Position numbers and translations under genes: made by a program. Positions 4,699-45,121 of a stretch of DNA of 64,000 bases are shown here, in pieces. Location of the stretch: positions 93,120-157,119 of the forward strand of contig CANRAF010000001.1 of assembly GCA_947628535.1 (NCBI GenBank). Direction: 5' to 3'. This DNA comes from an uncultured Bacilli bacterium. Lineage in GTDB: Bacteria > Bacillota_I > Bacilli_A > RF39 > UBA660. Position 1 is the stretch's first letter; each line of letters opens with the position of its first letter. The notes below the pieces were generated by a model. The model was not told the origin of the DNA, searched no databases, and saw only the letters and a list, made by a program, of their open reading frames with translations.

Positions 4699-4722
4699 AA
4701 AGCTCTTTTTGAGCTTTTAATT
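4699..4722 (-). terminator. Rho-independent terminator downstream of noc
   Basis: On the minus strand, the GCTCAAAAAGAGC hairpin is followed by a T-run (plus-strand sequence aaaaaagctctttttgagctttt). Confidence 0.5.
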
Positions 4723-6177
4723 TTTTTTATCTATTTCTATTACAATTTGGTACTTGTTTTCACTGTCATATTCATTAGATGTTACTTTAAATCCAAACTT
4801 TTCAGTATTTTGAATTGCTTGTCTAAAATTATTAATAGCAAATCTTAAGTCATAAACATCGTTAAATTGTTCTTGTTTTTCTTCTGGTTCTTCTTTTTCA
4901 TCAGATGGAACTCTAAATTGATCAAATATATTTGTTGGTTTAGAAACTTGTTTTGGTTCTTCTGTTTTTTCTATACTTGGAATTTGAATTATTTCATTTG
5001 CTGATTCTTCAATATTTTGAGAATCATTTATTTCAGGTTTATTTTGTTCTTCTTGATTATTTGCTTCAGATTCTGGTGCATTTTCTTCAGGAATATTAGT
5101 TTCATTTGGTAATGATTGACTCTCTTCATTTATATTAGTGCTTTCATTTACATTACTCTCTGGAATTGTAACATTATTTTGAACATTTTCTTGTGTTTGT
5201 TCTAGCTTATTCAAATTATTATTCATTGGAGATATATTGTTTAAAGGTTCATTACTGTTATTTACTTCTACATTTTTGTTTTCTACTGGTTTTTCTTCAG
5301 CTCTATTTGCATCAAGTGATTGTGAATTTTGTGGTGTTACTACTGGTTGTACAGAGTTTTCAATACTTTGATTACTTTTTTGTTCATCTATATTAGGTAA
5401 TAAATTATTTTCTGGTTTAGAAGGAATATTTGCCACTTGCTCTTGTTTATTTATGTTTTCTTCTGCTGATCCTTGACTTATAGTAGGTGCTATAACAGGA
5501 TTATTATTTTCATTCATATTTAAGTTTGAATTTTTATTTTCGGTTTCTTCAGGAGTTTCTATTACTTCAGGCATTTTTCCTGTTAGTTTCATTATTTCTT
5601 CATCTAACTGTCTTACTGTTAATTTTTCATTTATAATTCTTTTTAATAAATCTGTTTGCATTTGTGTATCTAAACTTAATAGACTCCTGGCATGCCTTTC
5701 TGAAATTTCAGAATTTAAAAGAGCTGTTTGGACTTCTTCTGCTAAAGTTAAAAGTCTTAATTTGTTAGCTATAGTTGATTGAGATTTACCTAAATTTTGA
5801 GCTAATTCTTCTTGAGTAATATTATCTAGTTTTAATATTGTTTGATATGTTTTTGCTTCTTCTATTGGTGTTAAATTACTTCTTTGAAGATTTTCTAGTA
5901 AAGCAATTTTTGCAGTTTCTCTATCATCTATATCTCTTACTAAGGCAGGAATTGTTTCTTTTCCTGCGAGTTGTGATGCACGGAATCTTCTTTCTCCTGC
6001 AATTATTTCGTATTTGTCCCCTACTTTTCTTACAATTATTGGTTGAATTACTCCATGTTCTCTTATTGACTGTGCTAATTCTTGTAAAGATGCATCATCG
6101 AACATTTCTCTTGGCTGAAATCTATTTGGAATAATATCTGTTAAAGATATTTCAAAAATCTCTTTTTCTAAATTCAT
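4717..6177 (-). CDS. noc: Nucleoid occlusion protein Noc (ParB family) with a long low-complexity insertion
   Basis: N-terminal 200 aa align with Noc (IPNRFQPR, GERRFRAS, GKSQSTIANKLRLL, ISERHAR). An N/Q/E/P-rich stretch of about 230 aa follows, then a conserved C-terminal domain (FRQAIQNTEKFGFKV...IVIEI). Confidence 0.8.
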   Translation of the reverse strand: MNLEKEIFEISLTDIIPNRFQPREMFDDASLQELAQSIREHGVIQPIIVRKVGDKYEIIAGERRFRASQLAGKETIPALVRDIDDRETAKIALLENLQRSNLTPIEEAKTYQTILKLDNITQEELAQNLGKSQSTIANKLRLLTLAEEVQTALLNSEISERHARSLLSLDTQMQTDLLKRIINEKLTVRQLDEEIMKLTGKMPEVIETPEETENKNSNLNMNENNNPVIAPTISQGSAEENINKQEQVANIPSKPENNLLPNIDEQKSNQSIENSVQPVVTPQNSQSLDANRAEEKPVENKNVEVNNSNEPLNNISPMNNNLNKLEQTQENVQNNVTIPESNVNESTNINEESQSLPNETNIPEENAPESEANNQEEQNKPEINDSQNIEESANEIIQIPSIEKTEEPKQVSKPTNIFDQFRVPSDEKEEPEEKQEQFNDVYDLRFAINNFRQAIQNTEKFGFKVTSNEYDSENKYQIVIEIDKKN

Positions 6178-10368: not shown

Positions 10369-11049
10369 TTACAAATTATATTTTTTTATTATTTTTAAAT
10401 TTTTATCTAATTCGTATATATATGGTTTCCCTGTTGCTATTTCTAAGTTCATTATATCTTCATCTTTTATGTTTTCAAAGTATTTTATAAATGCTCTTAT
10501 CGTATTTCCATGTGCTACTATAAGGATATCTTTATTTTCTTTTAATTTTGGCTTAATTTCTTTATCATAATATTTAATTACTCTTTTTATTACATCATTA
10601 AGATTTTCAGTTAATGGAAGTTCTTCTTCTGTTAAATTTTTATATTTTTCATCTTTTCCTGGATATCTTATATCGTCTTTTGTTAAAGCTGGAGGTTTTA
10701 CTATAGCACTTCTTCTCCATAAATGAACTTGCTCTTCTCCATATTTTTTCCTTGTTTCATCTTTATTTAATCCTTGAAGCGCACCATAATGTCTTTCGTT
10801 AAGCATCCAATTTTTATAAACCGGTATATCCTTTTTTGTTTCTTTTAAGATAAGATCTAAAGTTTTTATTGCTCTTTTTAAAACAGATGTGTATGCTATA
10901 TCAAAATTTATACTATTTTCTTTTAAAAGTTTTCCAGCGTTTTTTGCTTCTTTTATTCCTTTTTCTGTTAAATCTACATCTGTCCATCCAGTAAATTTAT
11001 TTTCATAATTCCAAATACTTTCTCCATGTCTTATTAAAATTAAATTCAT
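10369..11049 (-). CDS. gpmA: 2,3-bisphosphoglycerate-dependent phosphoglycerate mutase
   Basis: Catalytic RHGESIWNYENKFTGWTDVDLTEKG motif. Length 226 aa. Confidence 0.85.
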   Translation of the reverse strand: MNLILIRHGESIWNYENKFTGWTDVDLTEKGIKEAKNAGKLLKENSINFDIAYTSVLKRAIKTLDLILKETKKDIPVYKNWMLNERHYGALQGLNKDETRKKYGEEQVHLWRRSAIVKPPALTKDDIRYPGKDEKYKNLTEEELPLTENLNDVIKRVIKYYDKEIKPKLKENKDILIVAHGNTIRAFIKYFENIKDEDIMNLEIATGKPYIYELDKNLKIIKKYNL

Positions 11050-13124: not shown

Positions 13125-13436
13125 TTCTTGCACCTCCAAACTTAATTAGTCGCTACTATTGTATATGAAAAGTAGGGTGGTTGTCAATATTTTTTTAGTT
13201 ATTAACAGAATAAACGTTAATTAACTTTTTTTATTTTAACAATTGTTAATAGTGTTATTAACTTTTTTCTTGAAATTTGTTAAAAACTATTTTATAGTAT
13301 GTATTTAAAGGAAAAAATATGTTGATAAGTTTGTTAATAAGTATGTTAATTAATATTTTAACTTTTCAAAAATTTAAAAATGTATTACAATTAAATTAAC
13401 TTGTTAATACTTTGTTTTTAGTGGGGAGATGGTATT
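13125..13436. promoter_or_regulatory. oriC, upstream DnaA-box cluster plus dnaA promoter region
   Basis: Repeated 9-mers TTATTAACA, or its reverse complement TGTTAATAA, at about 13199, 13245, 13255, 13332, 13345 and 13402. This is one mismatch from the canonical TTATNCACA box. The position between rpmH and dnaA is the standard oriC location. Confidence 0.6.
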
Positions 13437-14813
13437 ATGGATAATAATTTGTTATGGCAAAAAGTTTTAGATAATATTAGTAATATCGTTGACCCTTTGT
13501 CTTTTGATACTTGGTTCAAAAATATTGATTTTATAGATATCCAAAATCATTCAGTTAGATTAGTTATTCCAATAATGTGGTATAAAAGTCATATTGATAA
13601 TAATTATAAAGATATTATTTTAGAAAATTTTAATAATTTAATTAAAGATAATAATGTTGATAGTATTATATATATATTAAAAGATAATGTTGAAGATTTT
13701 TTAGAAAGTGAAAAGAGTAGTAATACTTCTTTGGAAGAAAAAAAAGAGAGTAATTATGTTAAAAATCATGTTTCTAATTTAAATAAAAATTATACTTTTG
13801 AAAGTTTTGTAGTAGGGGAGTCTAATAAATTTGCACAAGCTGCAGCTTTGGCAGTTGCTGAAAATCCTGGAACTATGTATAATCCTTTATTTATATATGG
13901 TAATAGTGGACTTGGTAAGACTCATTTGATGCATGCAATTGGAAATTATATTGAAAGTAAACTGCAAAAAAGAGTTTTATACGTTACTAGTGATGATTTT
14001 ATGAATGATTTTACAGGACTTGTTAGAAAAAATAGTAATGTTAATAACTTGGATTATGTTGATTTTTTCAAAAATAAGTATCGAAATATTGATGTTTTAC
14101 TTATAGATGATATCCAGTTTTTAGGAGGCGCAGAAAAATCACAACAAGAATTTTTCCATACTTTTAACAATTTATATAATGATAGTAAGCAAATTATTGT
14201 GTCATCTGATAGATCTCCTGAAGATTTAAAAGTTTTAGAAGATAGACTTAGAACACGTTTTGCCTGGGGTCTTCAGGTAGATATTAGTCCTCCTGATTAT
14301 AATTTAAAAGTTGCAATTATTAAGAATAAGTTAAAAAGAGAAGATATTGTTATAAATGAAGATGTTATATCTTTTATAGCTTCAAATATTGGTAATGATG
14401 TAAGACAACTTGAAGGTTCTATTACAAGACTTGTTGCTTATTCTGCAATCATGTGTGTTACTGATATTACACTTGATTTTGCAATGGAGGCATTAAAAGA
14501 TTTTACAAAGAAAGATAGTGTAACTGACCAAAATAATATAAGAAGAATTCAAAAAAGCGTTGCTAATTTCTATAAAATATCTTTTGAGGATATGAAATCA
14601 AAGAAAAGAACTCCAAATCTTGCTATTCCAAGGCAGGTTGCTATGTATTTATGCAGAAAACTTACTGATGAGTCATTTGAAAGAATAGGTATTGAGTTTT
14701 CTGGTAAAAATCATGCTACAGTAATACATGCTTGTAATAAAATTGAAAAAGAAATGAAAATAAATAAAGATCTAAATAATGCTATTGCTGATATTGAAAA
14801 GCAATTAACATAA
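13437..14813 (+). CDS. dnaA: Chromosomal replication initiator DnaA
   Basis: AAA+ Walker A (GNSGLGKTHLMHAIG) and a C-terminal DNA-binding domain. Confidence 0.95.
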   Translation: MDNNLLWQKVLDNISNIVDPLSFDTWFKNIDFIDIQNHSVRLVIPIMWYKSHIDNNYKDIILENFNNLIKDNNVDSIIYILKDNVEDFLESEKSSNTSLEEKKESNYVKNHVSNLNKNYTFESFVVGESNKFAQAAALAVAENPGTMYNPLFIYGNSGLGKTHLMHAIGNYIESKLQKRVLYVTSDDFMNDFTGLVRKNSNVNNLDYVDFFKNKYRNIDVLLIDDIQFLGGAEKSQQEFFHTFNNLYNDSKQIIVSSDRSPEDLKVLEDRLRTRFAWGLQVDISPPDYNLKVAIIKNKLKREDIVINEDVISFIASNIGNDVRQLEGSITRLVAYSAIMCVTDITLDFAMEALKDFTKKDSVTDQNNIRRIQKSVANFYKISFEDMKSKKRTPNLAIPRQVAMYLCRKLTDESFERIGIEFSGKNHATVIHACNKIEKEMKINKDLNNAIADIEKQLT

Positions 14814-14964
14814 ATTTGTTAAATCCGTTAATATAAATTAACAAATAAAAAAGATATTATCTGTTGATATTAAAGTATTTTTTTAGATATTAACAATGTT
14901 AACAGTAATAATATAAATAATAAATAATTATTAAAAAAATAAAATAAAGAAAGTAGGTAATAAA
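14814..14964. promoter_or_regulatory. oriC second part: dnaA-dnaN intergenic DnaA boxes plus AT-rich unwinding element
   Basis: TATTAACAA and TGTTAACAG at 14887-14905 and ATTAACAAA at 14836. An A/T-only stretch of about 27 nt (aaataataaataattattaaaaaaataaaataaa) lies upstream of dnaN. Confidence 0.5.
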
Positions 14965-16083
14965 ATGAAGTTAAAAATAAAAAGAACAATTTTGTTAGAA
15001 GCACTTAATAATGTATCTAAAGCTATATCTAGTAAAAATATTATTCCAATTTTATCTGGTATTAAATTTGAACTTTTTAAAGATAAGTTAGTTTTAACTG
15101 CTTCTGATAATGATATAACTATTCAAACAGTTATTAACAAAAATGATGATTTAGAAATAAATAGTACAGGTAGTATTGTCATAAAGGGTAAATATATATT
15201 AGATATAATTAGAAAATTAGAAACAGAATTTATTAATATAGAAATTGTTGATGATCATAAGATTATGATTTTTACTGATAATAGTGAATTTAATTTAAAT
15301 GGTGTTGATATTAAAGAATATCCAGATATTAACTTAGACCTATCAAATGATTACATTAAGATGAAAACAGGTGATTTTAAAACAATGATTTCACAAACAA
15401 ATTATGCATGTTCTTTAGATGAAGCTAGGGTAGTGTTAACAGGAGTTAATATAAAGATAAATAATAATAATTTAGAATGCAGTGCAACTGATTCTTATAG
15501 ACTTGCCCTTAGAAAATATCGTCTTAAGGAAAAAGTGAGTAATGATATTGATATTATTATTCCAAGTAAGAATTTAAGTGAACTTTTAAAAGTAATTGGT
15601 CCTGCTGATGATGAAGCAATAGAGGTTCATTTATTTAGTAATAAAGTAATTTTCAAATTTAAAGATATTATTTTTCAATCAAGACTTATAAATGGTACTT
15701 ATCCAAATACTAAAAATCTTATTCCAAATGAATCTTTATTTGATTTAACTGTTAATAATAATGAATTTTATAATATGGTTGATCGTGCAAGTATATTAAA
15801 TAATGATACAGATAATAATATAATTACTTTAGAACTTAAAAATAAAGTTTTAAAAATTACTTCTATGTCTCTTGAAATAGGTAAAGTAGAAGAAAAAATG
15901 AATGTTGATAGTAATGAAAATATAAAAATATCTTTTAGTGCTAAATATATGATGGATGCTCTTAGGACTATAAAAAGTGATAATGTTACATTAACATTTG
16001 TAGGTGAGATAAAACCAATTCTTTTAAAAAGCGATGAAAACGATGATTTAACTTGTTTAATTTTACCTATTAGAACATATTAA
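14965..16083 (+). CDS. dnaN: DNA polymerase III beta sliding clamp
   Basis: 372 aa with three-domain clamp architecture. Sits immediately downstream of dnaA. Confidence 0.95.
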   Translation: MKLKIKRTILLEALNNVSKAISSKNIIPILSGIKFELFKDKLVLTASDNDITIQTVINKNDDLEINSTGSIVIKGKYILDIIRKLETEFINIEIVDDHKIMIFTDNSEFNLNGVDIKEYPDINLDLSNDYIKMKTGDFKTMISQTNYACSLDEARVVLTGVNIKINNNNLECSATDSYRLALRKYRLKEKVSNDIDIIIPSKNLSELLKVIGPADDEAIEVHLFSNKVIFKFKDIIFQSRLINGTYPNTKNLIPNESLFDLTVNNNEFYNMVDRASILNNDTDNNIITLELKNKVLKITSMSLEIGKVEEKMNVDSNENIKISFSAKYMMDALRTIKSDNVTLTFVGEIKPILLKSDENDDLTCLILPIRTY

Positions 16084-16255
16084 TTTTAAAATATTATTAA
16101 TTATTTATATTGAAAGGTGTAAAATTTTATAGATTTTTACATCTTTTTTTTAATTTTTTATTTCTATCCTACAAATTTCTGTCTTTTTCGACTTTTGAAA
16201 GTGTTACTTTAAAAAGTGTAGTATTTTTTTTACTATAAATTTTATGTTGTAGGGG

Positions 16256-16720
16256 GTGATGTTGATGAAATATGAAATAAATGATGAAACTTTGGCTATT
16301 TTGTCATTTAATGATGGAAAAAGTAGGGTAATCGAAAATAGTGAAGAATATATTGTTGATGATAATCCTTATGCAGTTATGGAACATAGTTGTAAATATT
16401 TTGGTAGTAGTATTGAGGGCAGAATATCTGGTTCAAGAGATATTTTAGGTAGCATTTATAAAACTCCAGTAATTGTTGAGGAATCTTTAGGTTTAATATT
16501 TTTTCCTACTGAGGCTTTAGAATCTTTAAATGTTTCATGGATTTCATATAAAAATATTAAAAATGTAGAAAAAGATGGTAAAAAAACAAAAATAATTTTT
16601 AAAAATGGTAGTAATATCGTTGTTGATTGTCCATTTTTCTCTATAAAGAATCAAATATTTAGATGTAATATGTTAGAAGCAATTTCTAATAATAGAAAAA
16701 TTAGTAAAAAAAGCGATTAA
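16256..16720 (+). CDS. ComK-family protein (competence transcription factor family)
   Basis: HSCKYFGSSIEGRISGS...KTPVIVEESLGLIFFPTEA...VSWISYKNIKNVEK...IIFKNGSNIVVDCPFFSIKNQIFRCNMLEA aligns motif-for-motif with B. subtilis ComK (SCRFFGSS..GRKAG...KPPIMVDPSNQIFLFPT...GWISHVHVKEF...VTFSNGKTMELPISYNSFENQVYRTAWL). The likely start is the ATG at 16265. Confidence 0.65.
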   Translation: MMLMKYEINDETLAILSFNDGKSRVIENSEEYIVDDNPYAVMEHSCKYFGSSIEGRISGSRDILGSIYKTPVIVEESLGLIFFPTEALESLNVSWISYKNIKNVEKDGKKTKIIFKNGSNIVVDCPFFSIKNQIFRCNMLEAISNNRKISKKSD

Positions 16721-16834
16721 AATGATAAAAATCGTTTTTTTTATGGCTTTTTTATGGTATAATGTAATAGTAAGTACCAGAGTACTAGTCTTGGAGTTGA
16801 TGCAAATTTGATAGGAAAAATTTAAAATTTAGAT

Positions 16835-19856
<3,022 letters not shown>

Positions 19857-19865
19857 GAGGTTATT

Positions 19866-22316
19866 ATGGATCATAGTAGAGATAGATTAGAAGAAAATAA
19901 TATTGTTAATGAAATAGAAACATCATTTCTTGAATATTCAATGAGTGTAATTGTATCTAGGGCTCTTCCTGATTTAAGAGATGGTTTAAAACCTGTTCAT
20001 CGTAGAATTTTATATTCTATGTATGAATCTGGTTATACTCCTGATAAACCTCATAAAAAGAGTGCGAGAATAGTTGGGGATGTTATGGGTAAATATCATC
20101 CTCATGGTGATAGTTCAATTTATGAGGCTATGGTAAGAATGGCTCAGGATTTCAATTATCGTTATATGTTAGTTGATGGACATGGTAATTTTGGAAATAT
20201 TGAAGGTTATGGAGCTGCTGCTATGCGTTATACAGAATCTAGACTTTCAAAAATTTCATTAGAACTTTTAAGAGATATAAATAAAAATACAGTTGATTTT
20301 GATGATAATTTTGATGAATCTGAAAAGGAACCTTCGATTTTACCTAGTAGATTTCCTAATATTTTAGTTAATGGTACTATGGGAATTGCTGTTGGTATGG
20401 CAACAAATATTCCTCCACATAATTTGGGAGAAGTTATTGATGGTTGTGTTGCTTATATTGATAATAACGATATAACAGTCGATGAACTTATGGATTATAT
20501 AAAAGGTCCTGATTTTCCTACAGGTGCTGTTATTTTAGGTAATAGTGGCATTAGAAAGGCTTATGAAACAGGAAAAGGAACAATTACAATAAGAAGTAGG
20601 GCTAAAATTGAGGAAAAGGATGGCAAACATTGTATAATTATTGATGAAGTTCCATATGGAGTTAATACTTTGGAACTAAAAAACAAAGTAGCAGAACTTG
20701 TTCATAATAAGGTTATTGATGGTATTTCTGATTATCACACTGATTTAAAAGATGGTGTTAAGATTACTATTACTTTAAAAAGGGATGCAAATCCTCAGGT
20801 GATTTTGAATAATTTATATAAGCATACTCAATTTCAAACTAATTATGGGATAAACTTTTTGATGCTTGATAATGGTGTTCCAAAGAGTTTAGGACTTAAA
20901 GATATTATTTCTAAATATATTGATTACCAAAAGGAAATAATTATAAGAAGGACAAAGTTTGATTTAGATAAAGCTGAAAAGAGAGTACACATTTTAGAAG
21001 GACTTAAGATAGCACTTGATAATATTGATGAAATTATAAAACTTTTAAGAGCTGCAAGAGATGATGAGATTGCAAGAACTCAATTGATGGATAGATTTGA
21101 TTTAACTGAAGCTCAGGCTAATGCTATTTTGGAAATGAGACTTAGAAGACTTACTGGTCTTGAAAGAGAAAAAATTGAAAATGAACTTGCAGAACTTCTT
21201 AAGAAGATAGTTGAATATAAAGCTATTCTTGAATCTGAAGAAAAAGTTTTAGGTATAATTAAGGAAGAACTTCTTGAAATTAAAGAAAAATATGGTGATG
21301 AAAGACGTACAAGTATTGATATGACTGCTATTGATTATATTGAAGACGAATCTTTGATTCCAAATGAAAATATTATGATATCACTTACTAAAAACGGATA
21401 TATCAAACGTTTGTGCGTTGATACATACAGAACTCAAAATCGTGGTGGCGTTGGTATTAGAGGTATGTCTACGAATGAAGAAGATTATGTTGAATTATTA
21501 GTAACTTGTCTTTCACATGATTACTTATTATTCTTTAGTAATTTTGGAAAGGTTTATAGAATTAAGGGGTATGAATTACCAGAATTTGGCAGACAATCTA
21601 AGGGTGTTCCTATTGTTAATATCTTATCACTTGAAAAGGATGAAAGAATTAATACAATTATTTCTGTTAGTAAGGAAGAAGAATGTAGTAATTTAATGTT
21701 CTTTACTAAGAATGGTTTGGTTAAGAGAACAGATATTACTGAGTTTGATTCAATTAGAAAAAATGGAAAAATTGCAATTACACTTAAAACTGATGATGAG
21801 TTAATTAGTGTTAAAAAAACTAATGGTAATGATGAGGTAATTATGGCTTCAAATGCTGGACGTATGGTTAGATTTAATGAGAATGATGTCCGTGTTATGG
21901 GAAGAAGCGCTTCAGGTGTTAGAGGTATAGATTTAGGAGATGCTAAAGTAATTGGTGCGGAAATTGTTAATATCTCTCAATTAATCTTAGTCGTAACTGA
22001 AAAGGGTTATGGAAAGAAAACTTCTGTTGATGAATATCGTTTAACTCATCGTGGTAGTAAGGGGGTTAAAGCTCTTAATATTACTGATAAAAATGGTTTG
22101 ATTGTTGCGTTTAAAGCGGTTAATGGTGATGAGGATTTAATTATTTCTACTGATAGTGGAATTGTTATTAGGTTAGATGTTAATAAAATATCAACTTTAA
22201 GACGTAATACTCAAGGTGTTAGATTAATTAATTTAAAGGATAATCAAATTGTTACTTCTGTTACTGTTACTGAAAAAAATGAGGAAACAGAACAAGAAGA
22301 GGTAAATGAAAACTAA
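19866..22316 (+). CDS. gyrA: DNA gyrase subunit A
   Basis: Active-site region (AAMRYTE) and C-terminal beta-pinwheel repeats. Length 816 aa. Confidence 0.95.
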
Positions 22317-31921: not shown

Positions 31922-32449
31922 ATGAAAACTACTGGGGTTGTTCGAAGAATTGATGATTTAGGCAGAATAGTAATTCCTAAGGAAATTAGGAAAACTCTTA
32001 GAATAAAGGATGGGGAATCAGTTGAAATATTTTTAAATAGCGATAATATAGTTTTAAAAAAATACTCTCCTTTACAAGGATTACCTAGTTTTTATAAAGA
32101 TTATGTTGAGTCTATATATTCTGAAATTGGAAATAATATAATTATTGTTGATAGAGATAAAATTGTGGCAGTTTCTGGGGATTTAAAGAAAAAGTATTTA
32201 AATAAGAATATTTCTTCGGAATTAGATGAAATTATTCAAAATAGAACTATAGTTTCTTCAAAGACAAAAAATAAAGTATCTATTATAAATGAAAAGGCAG
32301 AAGATGCAAGTTATGTTATTGCTCCCATAATTACTAATGGTGATGCTGTTGGAGCAGTTATTATTTTATCTTTTGAAGAAGTAATTGATGAATTTATAAT
32401 AAAAACGGGAACAATAGCTGCTAAATTTTTAGGGAAATATATTGAATAG
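31922..32449 (+). CDS. spoVT: Stage V sporulation protein T (AbrB-type N-domain + GAF)
   Basis: MKTTGVVRRIDDLGRIVIPKEIRKTLRIKDGESVEIF is near-identical to the SpoVT N-terminus. The GAF-like C-terminus is also conserved. Confidence 0.85.
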   Translation: MKTTGVVRRIDDLGRIVIPKEIRKTLRIKDGESVEIFLNSDNIVLKKYSPLQGLPSFYKDYVESIYSEIGNNIIIVDRDKIVAVSGDLKKKYLNKNISSELDEIIQNRTIVSSKTKNKVSIINEKAEDASYVIAPIITNGDAVGAVIILSFEEVIDEFIIKTGTIAAKFLGKYIE

Positions 32450-35216: not shown

Positions 35217-35843
35217 GTGACTATTTTGGCTAAAAAAAATAAAATAAAACGGAATACTGGTAAAAAGGTTTTATCTTGTATTTTGTATGTATTTGGTCTA
35301 ATTTTTATAGGTGCTGGAATAGTAGGGGTTATAAGTCTTGAAAATGATACATTCAAAGGTAGTCAAACACTTAATGATAATTTAGATAAATCAGTTTCTA
35401 CTAAGGAACTTGTTAATTCATTTCAAAAATTAGATAAAAAAAGCTTACAACCAGTTATGTATAGTAGTTTTGAAGATGCTGTTTATAATTCACAGTATTA
35501 TCCTACTAGTTTTGTAGGTAAATTAGTTCATTATGGGCCTGATTGCCCTTTATGTGGTGGCCATTTAGGATGTAATGGACAAGATGCAAGAAATGGTAAT
35601 ATTTATTATGATGATAGTGAATATGGAACTCTTAGAATAGTGGCAATGAGTTCAACTATTCCATGTGGAAGTATTATTAGAATCAATGTTGATGCTTATG
35701 ATCCAGATGGTATGTATGCGATTGTGCTTGATAGAGGAGTAAGCGGAAATATGGTAGATCTTTTAAAAACAAGTGCAAGAGCAAGTTCACCAGTGCAAAC
35801 TGTAAATGGAGTTACATTTGATATTGTAAGATATGGATATTAA
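35217..35843 (+). CDS. 3D-domain protein (YabE/MltA-like), membrane-anchored
   Basis: N-terminal TM helix. C-terminal 3D domain (IVAMSSTIPCGSIIRINVDAYDPDGMYAIVLDRGVSGNMVDL) plus a CPLCGGHLGC motif. The start may be the TTG at 35226. Confidence 0.7.
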   Translation: MTILAKKNKIKRNTGKKVLSCILYVFGLIFIGAGIVGVISLENDTFKGSQTLNDNLDKSVSTKELVNSFQKLDKKSLQPVMYSSFEDAVYNSQYYPTSFVGKLVHYGPDCPLCGGHLGCNGQDARNGNIYYDDSEYGTLRIVAMSSTIPCGSIIRINVDAYDPDGMYAIVLDRGVSGNMVDLLKTSARASSPVQTVNGVTFDIVRYGY

Positions 35844-35844
35844 A

Positions 35845-35868
35845 GACAAATATTTTGTCTTTTTTTCT
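35845..35868 (+). terminator. Rho-independent terminator
   Basis: AGACAAA-TATT-TTGTCT hairpin followed by T7. Confidence 0.65.
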
Positions 35869-35900
35869 GGGAAAATAATAGTAAAAAATTAGATAAAATA

Positions 35901-35929
35901 TTGATTTTTGCGTTTGAATATTGTACTAT
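35901..35929 (+). promoter_or_regulatory. Sigma-A-like promoter of TasA-like module 1
   Basis: TTGATT, 17 nt, TACTAT. The same promoter is duplicated at 37557-37585. Confidence 0.5.
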
Positions 35930-35956
35930 TTATATATATAGTAAAGGAGGCTAACA

Positions 35957-36640
35957 ATGGAAATTAAAGAGGATAATCAAAGAAAATTAATACTATCAGT
36001 TTTAGGAGTTGCAATATTAGTAGTTGCAGTAATTGGAATATCATTTGCAATATATCAAGCTACATTTAGTCAAAATGATGCTAATAGTATTCAAACAGGA
36101 ACTATTACTGTTAGTTATACAGAACCTAGTAATGCTATTAGTATTTCTGATGCAATGCCAATGGCTGAAAAAACAGCTCTAAAACAAGATAATAATAAAT
36201 TTGAATTTACTGTTACTACTGGTGCAAGCGGAAGCCTTACAGTACCATATGATATTAGTATTACGAAAATTGAAGAAAGTGATAATAATTTGAATGATGA
36301 AAATGTTAGAGTTTATTTAACAAAAGAGGATGAAACCCCAGTTGACTTAAGTACAAAAGAAGAGTCAAATGCTTTATACAAATCGTCAAATTCAAAATCA
36401 AGGCTTATTTCTGAATTAAATGAATATAGTGGGCGTAAGGAAGAAAAAGCAAAACTTTTATATAGCGCACAAGATGTGTTTAATGGTGATAATTCTGAAA
36501 CAACAAAATCTACAAAGTATGTTCTTAGAATGTGGGTAGATAAGAATTATCCAATGGATAATGGTACTGTTTCAAAAACATATAAAGCTAAAGTAAATGT
36601 TGATTCAGTAGTAACTCCACTTGGAACAAAAACAGAATAA
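35957..36640 (+). CDS. TasA/camelysin-family secreted protein, subtype A, copy 1 (SipW-cognate signal)
   Basis: Signal: K-rich n-region, h-region, then GISFA|IYQ. The mature N-terminus (DANSIQTGTITVSYTEPSNAISISDAMP) aligns with TasA (DATFASGTLDLSAKENSASVNLSNLKP). The C-terminal motif is YVLRMWVDKNY...KTYKAKVNVD. Confidence 0.75.
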   Translation: MEIKEDNQRKLILSVLGVAILVVAVIGISFAIYQATFSQNDANSIQTGTITVSYTEPSNAISISDAMPMAEKTALKQDNNKFEFTVTTGASGSLTVPYDISITKIEESDNNLNDENVRVYLTKEDETPVDLSTKEESNALYKSSNSKSRLISELNEYSGRKEEKAKLLYSAQDVFNGDNSETTKSTKYVLRMWVDKNYPMDNGTVSKTYKAKVNVDSVVTPLGTKTE

Positions 36641-36670
36641 TAGATAATAATGTTATGGAAGGAGAAAACT

Positions 36671-37435
36671 ATGGAAAATAATATAAATGACGATAACAAT
36701 AAAAAAACATTAATATTATCAATTTTGGGAATACTTGTTTTGATAATTGCTGTAGTTGGTGTTTCATTTGCAATGTACAAATTTACAGGAACAGGGACTC
36801 AAGAAAATGTAATTACAACAGGTACTGTCAATATGAGTTTTGATAATGAAGAAGGTAATAATATTTCTCTTACTAACGAATATCCCATGACTGATGAATA
36901 TGCAATACAAAGTAAGGATACTCATAAATCAGAATTTACTATAACTGCTAATTTGTCTGTAGAATCATCAGTTGCTATAGCTTATAGTATAGGAATTGAT
37001 GATCAAAATATAGAAGAAGGGGAAACTTTAAAGAAAGAATATATCAAAATAGCTTTACTTGATGACGATAATAATATATTAGTTGGGACTCCAAATGGAC
37101 TAGATAGTCAAGAATTAACAGGAGGAACTTTAATATCTGAACTTGAATCTCAACAAGATAATTTAATAAATAAATATATGCTTGCTCATAAACTTATTAC
37201 AGGAAGTAATACTTCGGATAAATATACTCTTTATGCATGGGTTGCAGACACTTATAATTTACCTACTGGTAATGACAATAAAGATTCAACTCTTGATGAA
37301 AATGTTATTAAGACTGAAGAAGATGATAAAACAAAGCAAGAAAAGACAACAAAATCTGAAACTTTTAAATTTAAATTAATAGTAAAAGCAAAGCAATTAC
37401 TTGATGAAGAAGAATATGAAGAATATCAACAATAA
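36671..37435 (+). CDS. TasA/camelysin-family secreted protein, subtype B, copy 1
   Basis: Signal ...GVSFA|MYKFTGTG. C-terminal motif YTLYAWVADTYN...ETFKFKLIVKAKQ resembles TasA FSFEATQ. The RBS-supported start is at 36671; the ORF track starts at 36650. Confidence 0.75.
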   Translation: MENNINDDNNKKTLILSILGILVLIIAVVGVSFAMYKFTGTGTQENVITTGTVNMSFDNEEGNNISLTNEYPMTDEYAIQSKDTHKSEFTITANLSVESSVAIAYSIGIDDQNIEEGETLKKEYIKIALLDDDNNILVGTPNGLDSQELTGGTLISELESQQDNLINKYMLAHKLITGSNTSDKYTLYAWVADTYNLPTGNDNKDSTLDENVIKTEEDDKTKQEKTTKSETFKFKLIVKAKQLLDEEEYEEYQQ

Positions 37436-37556
37436 GGAACATTTTTATATTTTAATAAAAAGTAGATAAAGTGAATATTATTTTTTACTTTATACTTCTT
37501 TTTTTATTAATAATTTTAGTATTATTGAAATTGTAAGGTTAAAAAAATATAAAATA

Positions 37557-37585
37557 TTGATTTTTATTCATTTATATTGTACTAT
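37557..37585 (+). promoter_or_regulatory. Sigma-A-like promoter of TasA-like module 2 (duplicate)
   Basis: TTGATT, 17 nt, TACTAT. The flanking sequence is near-identical to the module-1 promoter. Confidence 0.5.
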
Positions 37586-37607
37586 TGGTATAGTAAGGAG
37601 AATAGTG

Positions 37608-38267
37608 ATGGAAATAAAAGAAAATGGTCAAAAAAAATTATTGTTATCAATTTTGGGAGTGGCTATATTAGTTATTGCGGTAATTGGGATATCATTTGCA
37701 ATATATCAAACTACGTTTGATCAAGCAACTGCTAATAGCATTAAAACAGGGACTATTACTGTTAGTTATACAGAACCAAGTAATGCAATTGATATTGAAG
37801 ATGCAATGCCTATGAGTGAAAAAACAGCTTTAGAGACATTAAAGACAAGTAATAAAACATTTGATTTTACAGTTACTACTAAAGCAAGTGGGGAATTGAC
37901 TGTACCATATGAAATTAGCATTACAAAAGTGAGTGGTAGTTCAACTTTAGATGAGCAATATGTAAGAGTTTATTTAGAAAAAAATAATGGACCTGTTACT
38001 CTAATTGGTGAAAACGCAGTTCAAAAGGAAGGATTATATTCGAATCTCATTTCTAATTTAAAGGATTCAACGAAACGTCAAGATGGAACTAAACTTTTAT
38101 ATAGCACTAGTGATACTTTTGATAGTGAAAATAGTACAGCAATAAATACTACATATAAACTTATAATGTGGTTGGATGAAAACTATCAAATGGACAATGA
38201 GACTCAAACAAAAACATATAAAGCCAAGGTAAATGTTGATTCGGCTGTAACTCCAATCGCACAATAA
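37608..38267 (+). CDS. TasA/camelysin-family secreted protein, subtype A, copy 2
   Basis: Paralog of 35957-36640, with the same signal and GISFA|IYQ site. Start at 37608 after RBS GGAG. The ORF-track start at 37557 falls inside the promoter. Confidence 0.75.
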   Translation: MEIKENGQKKLLLSILGVAILVIAVIGISFAIYQTTFDQATANSIKTGTITVSYTEPSNAIDIEDAMPMSEKTALETLKTSNKTFDFTVTTKASGELTVPYEISITKVSGSSTLDEQYVRVYLEKNNGPVTLIGENAVQKEGLYSNLISNLKDSTKRQDGTKLLYSTSDTFDSENSTAINTTYKLIMWLDENYQMDNETQTKTYKAKVNVDSAVTPIAQ

Positions 38268-38305
38268 TAAAAAAATTTTTAAATATATGATGAAAGGAGA
38301 TAAGT

Positions 38306-39046
38306 ATGGAGAATAGTAATAATAAGAAAGTATTAATGTTGTCAATTTTAGGAATAATTGTGTTAATAATTGCAATTGTTGGTGTTTCATTTGCAATGTA
38401 TACTTTTTCGGGAACTGGAACTAAGACAAATGTAATTACAACTGGAACAGTGAATATGAGCTTTGAAAATGGTAAAAATGTTATTAATGTTGATAATCAA
38501 TATCCTATGGAAGATTCAGTGGCAATAACAAAAGAAGAAAATCAAACAAAATTTAGTGTTACTGCAAATTGGGGTTCTGCTCCATTAGCTATAAAATATG
38601 ATATTGGGATTTTGACCCCTTTTACTGAAGGAGATACTTTAAAGGAAAAACATATCAAGATAGCTTTGGTGGATGGTTCAGGGAACATATTGGTCGGGAC
38701 TCAAGAACCAGCTAAAGAAATAGAAGCAGAAAAGCATAATTTGACAGGTGGAACTTTGATGTCAGAACTTAAAAGCCAAAGTGGAGATTTAATAAAAGAA
38801 TATTGGCTTGCTAACGGACTTATTACAAATAGTGGACAAAAGGATGAATATACCCTTTATGCGTGGGTAGATAAGGATTATAATTTGCCTTATGGAGAAA
38901 GCAATGATGATTCTAGTGCTAATGTAGAAGCTCCTAGTACTACTGATGGAAATGATCAAAGTGTTAAACACGAAAAGACTACAAAAAGTGAAACTTTTAG
39001 TTTTAAAATTAAAGTGCAAGCTGAACAATTAATTGACGAAGACTAA
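38306..39046 (+). CDS. TasA/camelysin-family secreted protein, subtype B, copy 2
   Basis: Paralog of 36671-37435 with GVSFA|MYTFSGTG and a C-terminal ETFSFKIKVQAEQ. Confidence 0.75.
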   Translation: MENSNNKKVLMLSILGIIVLIIAIVGVSFAMYTFSGTGTKTNVITTGTVNMSFENGKNVINVDNQYPMEDSVAITKEENQTKFSVTANWGSAPLAIKYDIGILTPFTEGDTLKEKHIKIALVDGSGNILVGTQEPAKEIEAEKHNLTGGTLMSELKSQSGDLIKEYWLANGLITNSGQKDEYTLYAWVDKDYNLPYGESNDDSSANVEAPSTTDGNDQSVKHEKTTKSETFSFKIKVQAEQLIDED

Positions 39047-39199
39047 TAATAGTTTATATTTATAAAAAGTAGATAGAAAAAACATTATGAAAAATTTCGA
39101 TCTACTTTTTTTTAAATAATAATTAATGTCTAATTTTTCCTTTTAAAATATATTATTTTGTGGTAATATATTATTATAAGTTTATAGTAGGTGTTGCTT

Positions 39200-40297
39200 A
39201 TGAATGATGATAAAGAAGAATTAAATATTCAAGAAGAGAAAATAGCAGATGAAGTAGCGGATGAAATACTAACTGTTGAGAATGATGAATATGAACAAAG
39301 ATCTTTTTGGTTTATTGTTTTATTTCTTTTTTGTTTGATATTTTTAGTTTCATCTCTTTCATTTGCAGTGTTTGATACTTATTATAATGGTGAAAGTAAC
39401 AATGTGATTACTGTTGACGTTGATGAAAATGTAACTCAATGTGACAAGAACTGTGATACAGATAATGATGGTATATGTAATTATAACTGTGATATGAATA
39501 ATGATGGTATATGCGATAAAAATTGTGACAATGATAGTGATGGAAAGTGTGACGAAAATTGTGATGATTCTTATAAAAAACCTAGCAATAATTATTATAG
39601 TGTTTGTAAAACTAATTGTGATGTAAATAATAATGGTATATGTAATTATAATTGTGATACAAATAACGATGGTAACTGTGATAAAAACTGCGATACCAAC
39701 AATGATGGAGTATGTGATAAACATTGTGATAGCTCATTTCAAAAGCCAGAATATCCTAATAATCAAGATGGGAATGGTGATGAAGGAAATGATGTGGAAT
39801 CTGGTACTAAGCCACAACCAAGTGAATCAGAAAAACCTGCTTCAGGATCAATATTATTTTCGTTTAATGAAGAATCAAATTATATAAATATGACTGGTGT
39901 ATATCCTACTTCTGATACTATTGGTAAGAAGCTTGTTGGGGATAGACAATATTTTGATTTTAGTATTTCTGCTTCAATGAATAAAAATAAAGGAAATTTA
40001 GTATATGAAATTTCACTTGTACCAATTAGTGAAAATACAATTCCTGAAAATATGGTTAGGGTTTATTTGACTGAAAATGGAAAGGATGTTTCGATACTTG
40101 ATAAAACTATAAATAATTATAGTGAATTACCTAATAGTAAATATAGAAATGGTGGTAAGGTAATTTATAGCAAAAAAATAAGTAAAAATTATAATGGAGA
40201 ATATGTATTTAGAATGTGGCTTTCTTCAAAAGCGCCTGTTTATAATTCTTCAAAGAAATTTGGTGTAAAAATAGCTGTTAATGCATACTACAAATAG
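39200..40297 (+). CDS. Chimeric secreted protein: acidic N-tail, SipW-type signal, two blocks of Cys-containing TSP3-like Ca-binding repeats, and a TasA-like C-terminal half
   Basis: Signal ...SSLSFA|VFDTYY. About seven 12-aa repeats (NYNCDTNNDGNC / DKNCDTNNDGVC; D-x-[DN]-x-D-G loops with two Cys each) at nt 39437-39730. The C-terminus (MVRVYLTENGKDVS...YVFRMWLSSKAP...KKFGVKIAVNA) is paralogous to the TasA-like proteins. Confidence 0.7.
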   Translation: MNDDKEELNIQEEKIADEVADEILTVENDEYEQRSFWFIVLFLFCLIFLVSSLSFAVFDTYYNGESNNVITVDVDENVTQCDKNCDTDNDGICNYNCDMNNDGICDKNCDNDSDGKCDENCDDSYKKPSNNYYSVCKTNCDVNNNGICNYNCDTNNDGNCDKNCDTNNDGVCDKHCDSSFQKPEYPNNQDGNGDEGNDVESGTKPQPSESEKPASGSILFSFNEESNYINMTGVYPTSDTIGKKLVGDRQYFDFSISASMNKNKGNLVYEISLVPISENTIPENMVRVYLTENGKDVSILDKTINNYSELPNSKYRNGGKVIYSKKISKNYNGEYVFRMWLSSKAPVYNSSKKFGVKIAVNAYYK

Positions 40298-40300
40298 TTA

Positions 40301-40954
40301 TTGAAAGGATTGGTTGGTGTGAAAAACATAATTAATAGAATTTTTAAGATTATTTCATCTGCTATTTTTGTTTTGTTAGTGCTTCTAATTATATTAATTA
40401 TTTTTTATATTGTTCGAGTAAATTTTATGGCTAGTAATGACAAATTAGGCGATGTTAGAATCAACTTTTATACTATTTTAACTCAAAGTATGTATCCCAC
40501 TATTAAAGCGGGAGATATAGTTATTACTTATAAATCATTAGATGGAAAATATAATAATGGGGATGTTATCACTTTTGTTTCAGATAATAATGGAGGTATA
40601 ACTGTAACCCATAGAATTGTTGAAGTTTTTAATGTTAATAACAATTATTCTTATAAGACTAAGGGAGATAATAATAATGCTCCTGATAATGATGTTATTT
40701 CTGAAGATCATGTACTGGGGAAAGTTGTTATGAAAATTCCTAAGGTTGGGTATATACAACAATTTTTAGTTAGTAAAACTGGATGGATTGCTGCTGTTAT
40801 ATTACCATGTTTAGGAATAGTTATTTATGATATACTTAAATTGTTTAGACTTGCTGCGAGAAAAGGTAAGAATCTTATTGTTCAAGATAAAAGAACAGAA
40901 GATGCTAGAAAAAGATTAAAAGAGGTGTATGAAGATGAAAGTGAGGAAGAGTGA
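40301..40954 (+). CDS. sipW: Signal peptidase I, SipW type (S26B, archaeal/ER-type)
   Basis: Catalytic Ser box (TILTQSMYPTIKAGDIV) and His box (VTHRIVEV) with a single N-terminal TM helix. The likely start is the GTG at 40319, after RBS AAAGGA. Confidence 0.8.
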   Translation: MKGLVGVKNIINRIFKIISSAIFVLLVLLIILIIFYIVRVNFMASNDKLGDVRINFYTILTQSMYPTIKAGDIVITYKSLDGKYNNGDVITFVSDNNGGITVTHRIVEVFNVNNNYSYKTKGDNNNAPDNDVISEDHVLGKVVMKIPKVGYIQQFLVSKTGWIAAVILPCLGIVIYDILKLFRLAARKGKNLIVQDKRTEDARKRLKEVYEDESEEE

Positions 40955-41570
40955 TTTTGATGTTAGTACAGATGATTTAATGTTTAAGGAAGAAGTTCCA
41001 GAGGGAGATCTTTATAGCAAAGTTAATGTAGATGATAGAATTTTTGAAGATAAGGCCGTTAGGAAGAAGAGAACAACATATTTAATTGTTTTAGCTATTA
41101 TTTTAATTATTTGTTCTATTCTTTGTGCTATTTTTGGGTTTATTTATTTAGATAAACAACTTAAAGATAGAATAAATAATCCAGTGGTAGAAAAATATGA
41201 TTTGTTTGTTGGTCATTCTAATAGTACTTATGGTGGAGAAATTTCTTCATTTGCTAAATATAATAGTGAAAACAGTGCTTTTTCATATAATTTTTATGTA
41301 AGCAATAACAATCCAGTTGATCTTGATTACTCTATTTTACTTGCTAATTTGGATTATGATAATAGTAAAATTGATATGACACTTATACAGTATAGTTTAC
41401 TAAAAGATAATGAAGTAGTAAAAACAGGTTATTTAGAAGATGAAAAAGATAATTTGTTATATGAAGATACTATTAAATCTAATTTTACTGATAATTATAC
41501 TGTTAAACTATGGAGTGATAAACTTTCTAAAAACAACAAATTTAACTTTAAAATCAATATAGGGGTATAA
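40929..41570 (+). CDS. Membrane/secreted protein with a 48-aa cytoplasmic N-tail, SipW-like cleavage motif and a TasA-like C-terminal motif
   Basis: Overlaps the sipW 3' end (translational coupling). TM/signal ...SILCA|IFGF. C-terminal YTVKLWSDKLSKNNKFNFKINIGV resembles the Y.L..W.D...K motif of the paralogs. Confidence 0.6.
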   Translation: MKMKVRKSDFDVSTDDLMFKEEVPEGDLYSKVNVDDRIFEDKAVRKKRTTYLIVLAIILIICSILCAIFGFIYLDKQLKDRINNPVVEKYDLFVGHSNSTYGGEISSFAKYNSENSAFSYNFYVSNNNPVDLDYSILLANLDYDNSKIDMTLIQYSLLKDNEVVKTGYLEDEKDNLLYEDTIKSNFTDNYTVKLWSDKLSKNNKFNFKINIGV

Positions 41571-41581
41571 GGAGGAAAAAT

Positions 41582-42268
41582 ATGAAGGCATTTTTTATAG
41601 ATTTTTTAACATTATTAGCTAATTGTATTTTAATAGTTTGTCTTTCTCTTATGTCGTTTTTCCTTATCGCAAATTTATATCATGCTAGAGAGATTTCTTA
41701 TGGATATAGTGCTGATTTAAAAAATGATTCTAAGTATAAAGACTATAAAAAAACAATAAATGATTCATTTAATAAGATGAAAAATATTAATTATGATAAT
41801 CGTAAGAATGAATTAACTGCTAAACCTATATATCAATATTACTCTGATTGTGTGGAATCACTTAATAATGGTACATTTGCCAATTTTGAAAATGATGATA
41901 ATATTACAGCATTAGATATTTACAATGCTAATAATGAGATTTTAAATGATTATAATAACAAATGTATTTTTTATCTTCCTTATAGTATAGAAACTATTTA
42001 TAAAGATAAAAAGCAAAATGTTTCGTTTAATAATGTTTTATCTTTAGTTGAGGAAAGAGGTAATATTATTTCATCAAATGCTAAGTATTTGACAGACTCA
42101 GAACTTGGCAATAGTTCTTATACATTTACTACCGATACTTCGAGAGTTAGTATTTACAATAAAATTAAAGGTGAACTTGATCTTACTATGAATAATTATG
42201 AATTGATATCATTGATTCTTAGTGATATATCGGATTGGTATGTTTTAGAGTTTGGAGGAAATAATTAA
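41582..42268 (+). CDS. Hypothetical secreted/membrane-anchored protein (228 aa)
   Basis: N-terminal hydrophobic segment (LANCILIVCLSLMSFFLIANLYHA). RBS GGAGGAAAAATATG. No recognisable domain. Confidence 0.5.
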   Translation: MKAFFIDFLTLLANCILIVCLSLMSFFLIANLYHAREISYGYSADLKNDSKYKDYKKTINDSFNKMKNINYDNRKNELTAKPIYQYYSDCVESLNNGTFANFENDDNITALDIYNANNEILNDYNNKCIFYLPYSIETIYKDKKQNVSFNNVLSLVEERGNIISSNAKYLTDSELGNSSYTFTTDTSRVSIYNKIKGELDLTMNNYELISLILSDISDWYVLEFGGNN

Positions 42269-42879
42269 TGAAAGATATTTTATGTAAAATTTTGGGATTT
42301 TTAAAATATATTCTGTTAATTGCTGCTTTTGGATTAGTATTTTATGGAATAATTGTAACATATGGTAGACTTGAAAAGCCTTTAGTGGAATCTATACCAG
42401 TATTTATCCCTTTTGGAGTTGTTTTTCTACTTTTTATAATTACTTTAATAATGAGAGCAAAAACAGTTAGTAAGAATTTACTTTTTAATTTTGTTTCAGT
42501 ATTTGTATTTGTAGTAACTATTATAATATGTTTAAGAGCTATGTTCGATACTAATATGATTTTGTTTCATAAATATTCTATAAATTATAATCCCGCATTT
42601 TTTTCTGATAATTTATCTGCTATAGAGGCTATGATATATATGCTTGGAGTTGCAAATTTAATTTTGTTGGTTTGTGATTTGCTTAATAAGGATAATAAGA
42701 GCAGAAAAAATAATTCTAAAAGTACGGTTTCTTACAATGACAATAAAACTTATGCTAAACAGGAAAAAAAAGAAAAGAATAATGATAAAGATTTTTTTGA
42801 AAAGAAGAAAGATATTTTAGAAGATAATAATATTGATAAGGATACAGAAGAAGTTTTAGAAACAAAAGATAAGGATTGA
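42268..42879 (+). CDS. Hypothetical polytopic membrane protein with a K/E-rich C-terminal tail
   Basis: Start overlaps the upstream stop (TAATG). Four predicted TM helices. Tail KNNSKSTVSYNDNKTYAKQEKKEKNNDKDFFEKKKD. Confidence 0.5.
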   Translation: MKDILCKILGFLKYILLIAAFGLVFYGIIVTYGRLEKPLVESIPVFIPFGVVFLLFIITLIMRAKTVSKNLLFNFVSVFVFVVTIIICLRAMFDTNMILFHKYSINYNPAFFSDNLSAIEAMIYMLGVANLILLVCDLLNKDNKSRKNNSKSTVSYNDNKTYAKQEKKEKNNDKDFFEKKKDILEDNNIDKDTEEVLETKDKD

Positions 42880-44860: not shown

Positions 44861-45121
44861 ATGAAGATTACATCAGTAAATGTACGTAAGATTGAAAAGG
44901 AAGGCTCACGTATGAAAGGAATTGCATCAGTCCTAATTGATGATTGTTTTGCAGTTCATGATATTCGTATAATTGAAGGAGATAATGGATTATTTATCGC
45001 TATGCCTAGTAGAAAAACAGCTACTGGAGGTTATCGTGATATAGCACATCCAATTAATCCTGAAACACGTACATTATTCGAAGAAGCTATTTTAGAAGCA
45101 TATAATACTGCTGAGGAATAG
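44861..45121 (+). CDS. spoVG: Septation protein SpoVG
   Basis: [52 protein letters not shown] is near-invariant SpoVG sequence. Confidence 0.95.

Follow-up and report, generated by a model that had tools for sequence, protein, structure and literature searches.

In Bacillus, the genes at the replication origin are arranged as dnaA-dnaN-yaaA (rlbA)-recF-remB (yaaB)-gyrB-gyrA. The comK gene of B. subtilis lies, by its textbook map position, far from the origin, whereas the comK gene described here is embedded between dnaN and recF. To our knowledge, the only documented role of the ComK family is activation of competence, or the K-state, that is, of DNA-uptake and recombination genes. The gene in question (16265-16720, plus strand) encodes a short-form ComK-family protein and was found in a 64,000-nt stretch of DNA from an uncultured Bacilli bacterium; this whole stretch is called the window below.

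At the B. subtilis comK promoter, phosphorylated Spo0A (Spo0A~P) binds directly at five sites, one of which overlaps the -35 element (PMC3297582). B. subtilis ComK carries a C-terminal, MecA-binding degron, FMLYPK..., as stated in a passage of PMC8138137 that cites Prepiak and Dubnau (2007). In S. pneumoniae, replication stress raises the gene dosage of the origin-proximal comCDE locus and thereby triggers competence (PMC8394987). In the RF39, RFN20 and ML615J-28 orders, spo0A and many sporulation genes are reported to be retained in part of the members (PMC10868615), and the supplement of that study held no com-gene data. Literature searches on ComK together with RF39, or on the dnaN-comK-recF order, returned nothing relevant. 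The ComK protein family is already known, as are the NCBI ComK labels on proteins of such metagenome-assembled genomes (MAGs). In the literature searched, we did not find the universal dnaN-comK-recF placement, a degron-less short subfamily tied to that placement, or a conserved Spo0A-type box array.

An intact ComK-family protein between dnaN and recF

The order and orientation of dnaA, dnaN, recF, gyrB and gyrA in the window match the canonical Firmicute origin cluster, as does the wider context, with rpmH-rnpA-yidC-jag upstream and the signal recognition particle (SRP) RNA-dnaX-ybaB-recR downstream. The differences lie in the small genes. The yaaA slot is taken by comK, giving dnaA-dnaN-comK-recF-gyrB-gyrA, and neither the dnaN-recF slot nor the other intergenic gaps of the window contained an S4-type small open reading frame (ORF). 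Moreover, no gene separates recF from gyrB; because both ORFs overlap, there is no DUF370/remB-type gene between them. The ORF map thus agrees with the initial annotation, which had put a ComK-family gene in the slot of the Bacillus yaaA gene and remarked on the missing remB. The flanking genes are dnaN, encoding the DNA polymerase III beta clamp (14965-16083), and recF (16835-17938), the end of which is overlapped by gyrB (17919-19856), all on the plus strand. These assignments rest on the ORFs together with Pfam DNA_pol3_beta domains on the identical or near-identical dnaN of related contigs L018-L020, SMC_N/AAA_23 on the identical recF of L018, and the Pfam labels of gyrB orthologues.

The ORF listing gives 16256-16720 (plus strand), encoding 154 amino acids from a GTG. 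The likely start was placed at the ATG at 16265, 8 nt past a GGGGG Shine-Dalgarno run (16252-16256), because of the position of this run and because homologue N-termini open MKYEINDETLAI at the same point; the product then has 151 amino acids, followed by the stop codon. The Shine-Dalgarno sequence reads GGGGGTGA (16252-16259, plus strand), and the aligned run in relatives contains one invariant G and an adjacent, nearly invariant G.

The profile search recovered the family proposed from the letters. The product matched Pfam ComK (PF06338) with an E value of 5.2e-35 and 120.9 bits (cut-off 22.3), covering profile positions 3-150 of 152, and all 113 close homologues also belong to PF06338; no NCBIfam model matched the protein. 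It was 30% identical over 146 amino acids (E 7e-24) to B. subtilis ComK, and 30% identical (E 2e-23) to the database protein P0215. The B. subtilis sequence used as the query is corroborated by P0215, which is 56% identical to it over all 192 amino acids, and by the published degron string. The ComK motif blocks listed in the initial annotation were seen in the pairwise alignment with Bacillus ComK (SC.YFGSS..GR, KxP.IV, IFFPT, WIS, F.NG and NQ..R) and correspond to columns of the family alignment that hardly vary. Among 46 diverse family members, canonical 190-residue forms included, C43 and P68 were invariant, and Y3, T9, G47, S48, G52, R53, K66, I69, F80, P81, W92, Q130 and L137 were conserved in at least 90%. 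The window protein has all of these residues except at position 69, where a conservative valine is found. Additionally, a clade profile run against 1.84 billion proteins returned 1763 cluster representatives, mostly of 145-157 amino acids, and reached the canonical forms of ~190 residues at E about 1e-33.

The ratio of nonsynonymous to synonymous substitution rates (dN/dS) of comK was 0.06-0.10 in close, unsaturated pairs, indicating purifying selection, and the ORF was intact at every locus inspected. An AlphaFold2 model of the product (16265-16717) formed a single domain with a mean predicted local distance difference test (pLDDT) score of 92.5. The window ORF is an intact, selected member of the ComK family that consists of the ComK domain alone. 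A chance ORF or a decaying pseudogene resembling ComK is excluded by the full-length Pfam match, the intactness, the dN/dS, the fold and the conserved Shine-Dalgarno sequence and promoter, and its probability is close to nil. 'Competence regulator' is the label of the family, and a competence function in this organism is presumed.

No ComK structure was matched in the PDB, either by sequence or by profile. A fold search with the AlphaFold2 model gave no strong PDB match and a weak resemblance to the LytTR DNA-binding domains of AgrA and ComE (Foldseek probability up to 1.0, template modelling score of 0.55-0.60 on target length, E 0.04-0.3), suggesting that the ComK fold may be distantly LytTR-like.

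Conservation of the dnaN-comK-recF placement

The order dnaA-dnaN-comK-recF-gyrB-gyrA was present in all 17 species-level genomes that were found with the protein, down to 40% ComK identity. As MAGs, these genomes bear the labels uncultured Tenericutes, Mycoplasma, Bacilli or Erysipelotrichaceae. Seven more distant ComK lineages, the proteins of which are about 31-46% identical to that of the window, all had this gene order, with neighbours annotated by Pfam. One distant lineage is very common in gut metagenomes, and its protein bears the NCBI name 'competence protein ComK' in Candidatus (Ca.) Faecisoma and Acholeplasma sp. MAGs. A metagenome scan was seeded with RecF, which avoids the bias of a ComK seed, and the count was restricted to clade loci that extend 600 nt or more upstream of recF. 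comK lay immediately upstream of recF in 38 of these 40 loci; at the remaining two, an accessory ORF was inserted and the contig ended before comK could be reached. Two outgroup loci (30% RecF identity) have dnaN followed directly by recF, with no comK, and an ORF of ~105 amino acids between recF and gyrB.

Judged from these comparisons, the placement is an ancestral, fixed trait of a deep clade of uncultured gut Bacilli with small genomes, the MAGs of which are labelled Tenericutes, Mycoplasma, Acholeplasma or Ca. Faecisoma. The initial annotation had called the placement unusual; this holds against model organisms but not within the lineage, where the placement is universal and ancient. Of the two outcomes that it regarded as speaking against its proposal, a failed profile search did not occur; of the other, which coupled broad conservation in non-competent relatives with a lack of DNA-uptake machinery, the broad conservation was found.

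The spacers around comK are insertion hot spots, although comK itself is never displaced. Insertions were located at 6463-7435 of L001, 6457-8487 of L005, 1-817 of L032, 1-694 of L034, 5634-6965 of L025 and 2586-3442 of L044. Inserts between comK and recF encode related unknown proteins of 257-289 amino acids that share a ...SGYV.FS.F...LGYSM motif, and the terminator and promoter segment is duplicated there. In addition, one genome carries an HTH_38 transposase-like gene between comK and recF, and one has ~860 extra bp between dnaN and comK.

There is nearly an even chance that this is an ordinary ComK in a frozen location, i.e. that the gene inserted into the Firmicute chromosome block that best resists rearrangement, or replaced yaaA in it, and that its origin proximity has no regulatory meaning. 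The rnpA-rpmH / dnaA-dnaN-...-gyrA block is collinear at every locus, the outgroups keep this block without comK, and an effect of gene dosage is argued by analogy. The slot is not inert, however, as insertions occurred on both sides of comK in several genomes while comK stayed in place, and there is a pneumococcal precedent in which origin-proximal competence regulators sense replication stress via dosage (PMC8394987). Except for the dosage point, a frozen location is compatible with the competence function that we favour below. If the placement were merely a frozen accident, it would still provide a clean synteny marker for the clade.

Short form and absence of the MecA degron

The window protein and B. 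subtilis ComK share the same full-length domain and conserved motifs, whereas their lengths differ (151 and 192 amino acids, respectively) and the degron is found only in the B. subtilis form. In the alignment, the window protein ends at about residue 157 of B. subtilis ComK, and the C-terminal MecA/ClpCP degron is missing because the protein ends before the degron position. Short family representatives (145-157 amino acids) likewise lack the C-terminal extension of ~35 residues. As far as sampled, the dnaN-recF placement appears to characterise this short-form subfamily. ClpC, a component of the B. subtilis switch, is also encoded in the window (clpC, 57919-60201).

Without the MecA degron, control of ComK would be exerted mainly at transcription or at the mRNA level. 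The degron-free short form represents a natural minimal ComK, which should be useful for structure and function work on a family without a solved structure.

Transcription unit of comK and the recF leader

comK is predicted to form its own monocistronic unit between two terminator hairpins. The dnaN transcript would end at an AT-rich, intrinsic-terminator-like hairpin followed by a U-run (16112-16150, plus strand; -11.1 kcal/mol, z = -4.1, a fold equalled by 0 of 200 shuffles), which a simple terminator scan missed because its stem is AT-rich. A second terminator-like hairpin, with U8, has its left arm in the last codons of comK (16704-16745, plus strand; -11.9 kcal/mol, z = -4.8, likewise 0 of 200 shuffles), and its AAAATCG-T8 sequence is conserved in relatives L001-L013. 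The dnaN-comK intergenic region measures 74-214 nt in the clade, which is long for these genomes.

Alignment with relatives placed a predicted extended -10 element of the comK promoter (TGT-TACTTT) at 16202-16210 on the plus strand, 11 nt downstream of the proximal box described below, and relatives carry a TGnTATAAG or TATTAT -10 at the same distance from the box. A consensus scan offered an alternative promoter, TTGAAA-18-TAGTAT, at 16195-16224. A small hairpin (UGUAGUA-U7-UACUAUA) lies in the predicted 5' untranslated region (UTR) at 16217-16237 on the plus strand; it was not significant in the window (z = -0.34), and a hairpin after the -10 recurs in many relatives with different arm sequences. 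The MAFFT alignment of this region was poor.

Downstream, recF has an extended -10 of its own (TGG-TATAAT, 16755-16763, plus strand), which reads TGnTATAAT in all relatives inspected. It is followed by a leader of the form GTAY-N4-RTAC / AGGAG (16764-16815, plus strand; GTACCAGAGTAC in the window) that is near-invariant in L001-L013. The recF promoter and its ~50-nt leader were better conserved than the flanking proteins (L001-L017, L021-L028 and L084), and the core of the leader survives at about 36% ComK identity. No thermodynamic fold signal was detected in the recF leader (z = +0.5), and Rfam searches at gathering and permissive thresholds returned no family in the comK or recF leaders. 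The leader may act as an operator that overlies the start of transcription, or as a stabilising element at the 5' end that resembles a Shine-Dalgarno sequence.

The unusual conservation of this promoter and leader next to comK is among the observations that would suit a repurposed housekeeping factor, that is, a ComK-fold protein that regulates or assists replication, recombination or repair (for example through recF-gyrBA or other genes of DNA metabolism) rather than DNA uptake. Such a role would explain the universal retention of comK inside the replication cluster, at a fixed site among replication genes even at about 31-36% protein identity; moreover, the 64-kb window contains zero uptake genes, and the protein lacks the MecA degron, which ties B. 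subtilis ComK to the competence switch. We nevertheless consider a housekeeping role unlikely. The family is documented only as an activator of competence or the K-state, and comK is insulated by terminators and has its own regulated promoter, which is unexpected for a constitutive factor. Additionally, accessory genes and an insertion sequence have entered between comK and recF with both genes undisrupted, and these insertions argue against obligatory co-expression.

A tandem TTCGACA array upstream of comK

On the coding strand, the comK promoters of the clade carry TTCGACA as a direct repeat in two or three copies. The spacing is 10 bp, or 20 bp where the copy in the middle is degenerate, and 11-12 nt separate the end of the array from the extended -10 (TGnTATAAG or TATTAT). 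An exact TTCGNCA on the coding strand, between -45 and -92, was found in 29 of 54 unique upstream regions. In ~630 kb of related sequence, searched on both strands, all 14 exact tandem pairs (10- or 20-bp spacing) lie upstream of comK, as do 44 of the ~155 single boxes. Three boxes in perfect 10-bp register occur in L060, L074 and L084, the last of which encodes a ComK only 36% identical to that of the window. In the window, the distal box is TCCTACA (16167-16173; 5/7 match to TTCGACA), the middle box TTCTGTC (16177-16183; 3/7) and the proximal box TTCGACT (16187-16193; 6/7), all on the plus strand.

Tandem 0A boxes at 10-bp phase are a known binding mode of Spo0A, for example at the abrB promoter. 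Read on the opposite strand, TTCGACA is exactly the Spo0A box, TGTCGAA. With the Spo0A promoters of abrB, spoIIG and B. subtilis comK, the clade shares head-to-tail 7-bp TGTCGAA boxes at 10-bp phase, upstream of or over the -35; the window's own boxes, by comparison, are degenerate, and the clade array is a putative Spo0A site. Where the B. subtilis comK promoter has a Spo0A site over the -35, the clade comK promoters have a candidate Spo0A box next to or over it. We infer Spo0A-like gating because the boxes match the Spo0A consensus on the other strand, the -35 is weak or absent and the boxes abut the -10. Spo0A, or a close functional analogue, is most likely the binder of the array. The window also encodes the sporulation-associated proteins SpoVT, YabG, SpoVG and YabP, and a sigH-like gene lies just beyond it.

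It is possible, though we doubt it, that the array is instead an autoregulatory site of the ComK subfamily or the target of another response regulator of a quorum-sensing or LytTR type. The window ComK model is weakly LytTR-like, and LytTR domains (AgrA/ComE) bind phased direct repeats. The Spo0A assignment draws on the box sequence, while spo0A has been reported for related orders in part of their members, and box-like repeats persist in lineages that bear the labels Acholeplasma or Ca. Faecisoma. In B. subtilis, the comK promoter is activated by ComK itself (PMC3297582). Against this stand the exact match of the 7-mer to the Spo0A consensus, the 10-bp tandem phasing as in textbook 0A boxes, and the dissimilarity of the array to the AT-rich repeats flanking dnaA; no further tandem copies were found in the ~630 kb, a count that is uninformative for ComK targets because target genes lie elsewhere. 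The preferred binder is therefore still Spo0A or its analogue.

Several other identities were rejected. TTCGACA does not represent DnaA boxes, since TTATCCACA was not enriched and the repeats at dnaA are TGTTAATAA/TTATTAACA-like. As a -35 hexamer it would lie only 11 nt from the -10, which is too close. The CtsR heptad (TTTGACC) fitted worse, with 2 of 7 positions mismatched, and the CodY, LexA, Rex and streptococcal cin-box consensuses did not fit.

The sporulation-type genes show a Bacillus-like synteny, with spoVT at 31922-32449, yabG at 43753-44547, spoVG at 44861-45118, yabP at 45196-45480 and a yabQ-like membrane ORF at 45480-45749. The MAGs of this lineage bear the labels Tenericutes or Mycoplasma, and the presence of these genes agrees with published predictions that sporulation is in part retained in RF39-like orders.

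A probable competence programme and the possible role of origin proximity

Overall, the short ComK is, in our view, fairly probably a transcriptionally gated ComK-type factor that drives a competence or K-state programme; its family identity and its synteny are held with much higher confidence. In this scheme, Spo0A~P or a response regulator like it would gate comK transcription as cells enter stationary phase or sporulation. ComK would switch on K-state genes for DNA uptake and recombination that lie elsewhere in the genome, and, in addition, the position near the origin would raise the comK copy number when replication forks stall.

Several observations weigh against this interpretation. The late competence genes comG, comE, comF, dprA and coiA were absent from the 64-kb window and from ~1.8 kb beyond its right end (contig L083). 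ComK-box dyads (two A4N5T4 motifs, spaced by 8 or 18 bp, with 2 mismatches) were not meaningfully enriched, at 12 against 5.4 expected and 8 against 5.4 expected in a scan weakened by AT-rich DNA, and none was detected at the comK promoter, a difference from the B. subtilis ComK system. The boxes of the window itself match TTCGACA at 6, 3 and 5 of 7 positions, only TTTGACA-like copies are present in certain lineages, for example L021 (Ca. Faecisoma), and the binder of the boxes could be ComK itself or a different response regulator. Finally, the positional conservation may reflect only the stability of the dnaA-gyrA block.

An A4N5T4 match at 16706-16740 was discarded as a ComK box, as it is the comK terminator.

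The start of comK lies 1.45 kb downstream of the end of dnaA and about 1.5-3 kb from the origin regions flanking dnaA. Like the pneumococcal comCDE locus, a competence master-regulator locus beside oriC, the window comK is thus found within a few kb of oriC, and its copy number would rise because stalled forks combined with continued initiation amplify the region near oriC. The two loci differ in that comCDE encodes a two-component system plus a peptide, whereas the window has a single ComK-fold factor of unrelated sequence; for the window comK, autoinduction and a response to replication stress are hypothetical. The dosage idea put forward in the initial annotation is plausible given this precedent, and an adaptive origin proximity, acting through dosage under replication stress, and frozen synteny are about equally likely.

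A stronger proposal is that the short ComK is an origin-embedded checkpoint regulator of a distinct subfamily, the dose of which would rise on fork stalling while the array would read Spo0A~P; we regard this as improbable. If it were true, these inputs would commit cells to a state of DNA uptake, recombination or growth arrest, a ComK analogue of the pneumococcal 'competence as SOS', and RF39-like uncultured gut lineages would be naturally transformable.

RF39/RFN20-like 'Tenericutes' are prevalent in human and animal guts; they are without genetic tools and, in the sources consulted, without cultured representatives. A conserved comK under selection suggests possible natural transformability in these bacteria, or at least a retained K-state programme. 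Transformability would matter for horizontal gene flow in the gut and for genetic work in the future. Moreover, a fixed origin location combined with a Spo0A-type array would couple competence to both replication status and stationary-phase signalling in a ComK-based organism, in parallel with the pneumococcal dosage mechanism.

Neighbouring genes and other features of the window

The remaining genes of the origin cluster, dnaA (13437-14813) and gyrA (19866-22316), were assigned on the plus strand from the ORF listing. The minus strand carries AbgT, MscS, spo0J/soj, a second ParB-like gene, rsmG, mnmG, mnmE, jag, yidC, rnpA and rpmH. On the plus strand, the context comprises the SRP RNA, tadA, dnaX, ybaB, recR, holB, yaaT, pth, mfd, spoVT, metS and tatD, and further ksgA, yabG, veg, spoVG, yabP, divIC, tilS, ftsH, clpC, gltX and cysS. 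The short contig L083 extends ~1.8 kb past the right end of the window and adds mrnC, rlmB and the sigH-like gene; no sequence beyond the left end was recovered.

Many AT-rich repeats resembling TGTTAATAA/TTATTAACA flank dnaA, at 13188-13440 and 14810-14910. A perfect TTATCCACA DnaA box was found nowhere in the window, and canonical TTATCCACA was not enriched; the DnaA-box consensus of the lineage seems to have shifted to an AT-rich variant.

A second ParB-type protein of 486 amino acids (4717-6177; ParB_N plus HTH_ParB) adjoins soj/spo0J. It is Noc-like by position and has a C-terminal extension of ~290 residues without a Pfam match. In the otherwise canonical mnmE-jag-yidC-rnpA block, a His_Phos_1 histidine-phosphatase gene (10369-11049) is located between jag and mnmE.

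Between tatD and ksgA, ten consecutive ORFs (35217-42879) had no Pfam hit. Five of them (at 35957, 36650, 37557, 38306 and 39191) form a paralogous set, 24-61% identical, with a membrane or signal anchor at the N-terminus; the ORF at 40301-40954 has an SMYPT motif that recalls type I signal peptidases. The region may be a cluster of secreted or surface proteins. The FtsH protein (47546-49519) carries a C-terminal Rho_N-like domain at residues 621-650 (E 1.4e-8), an unusual appendage for FtsH. Just upstream of clpC, a 956-residue protein (54976-57846) contains two concanavalin-like domains of the Laminin_G_3 type, together with a weak FGE-sulfatase-like domain, and may act as a surface or adhesion protein.

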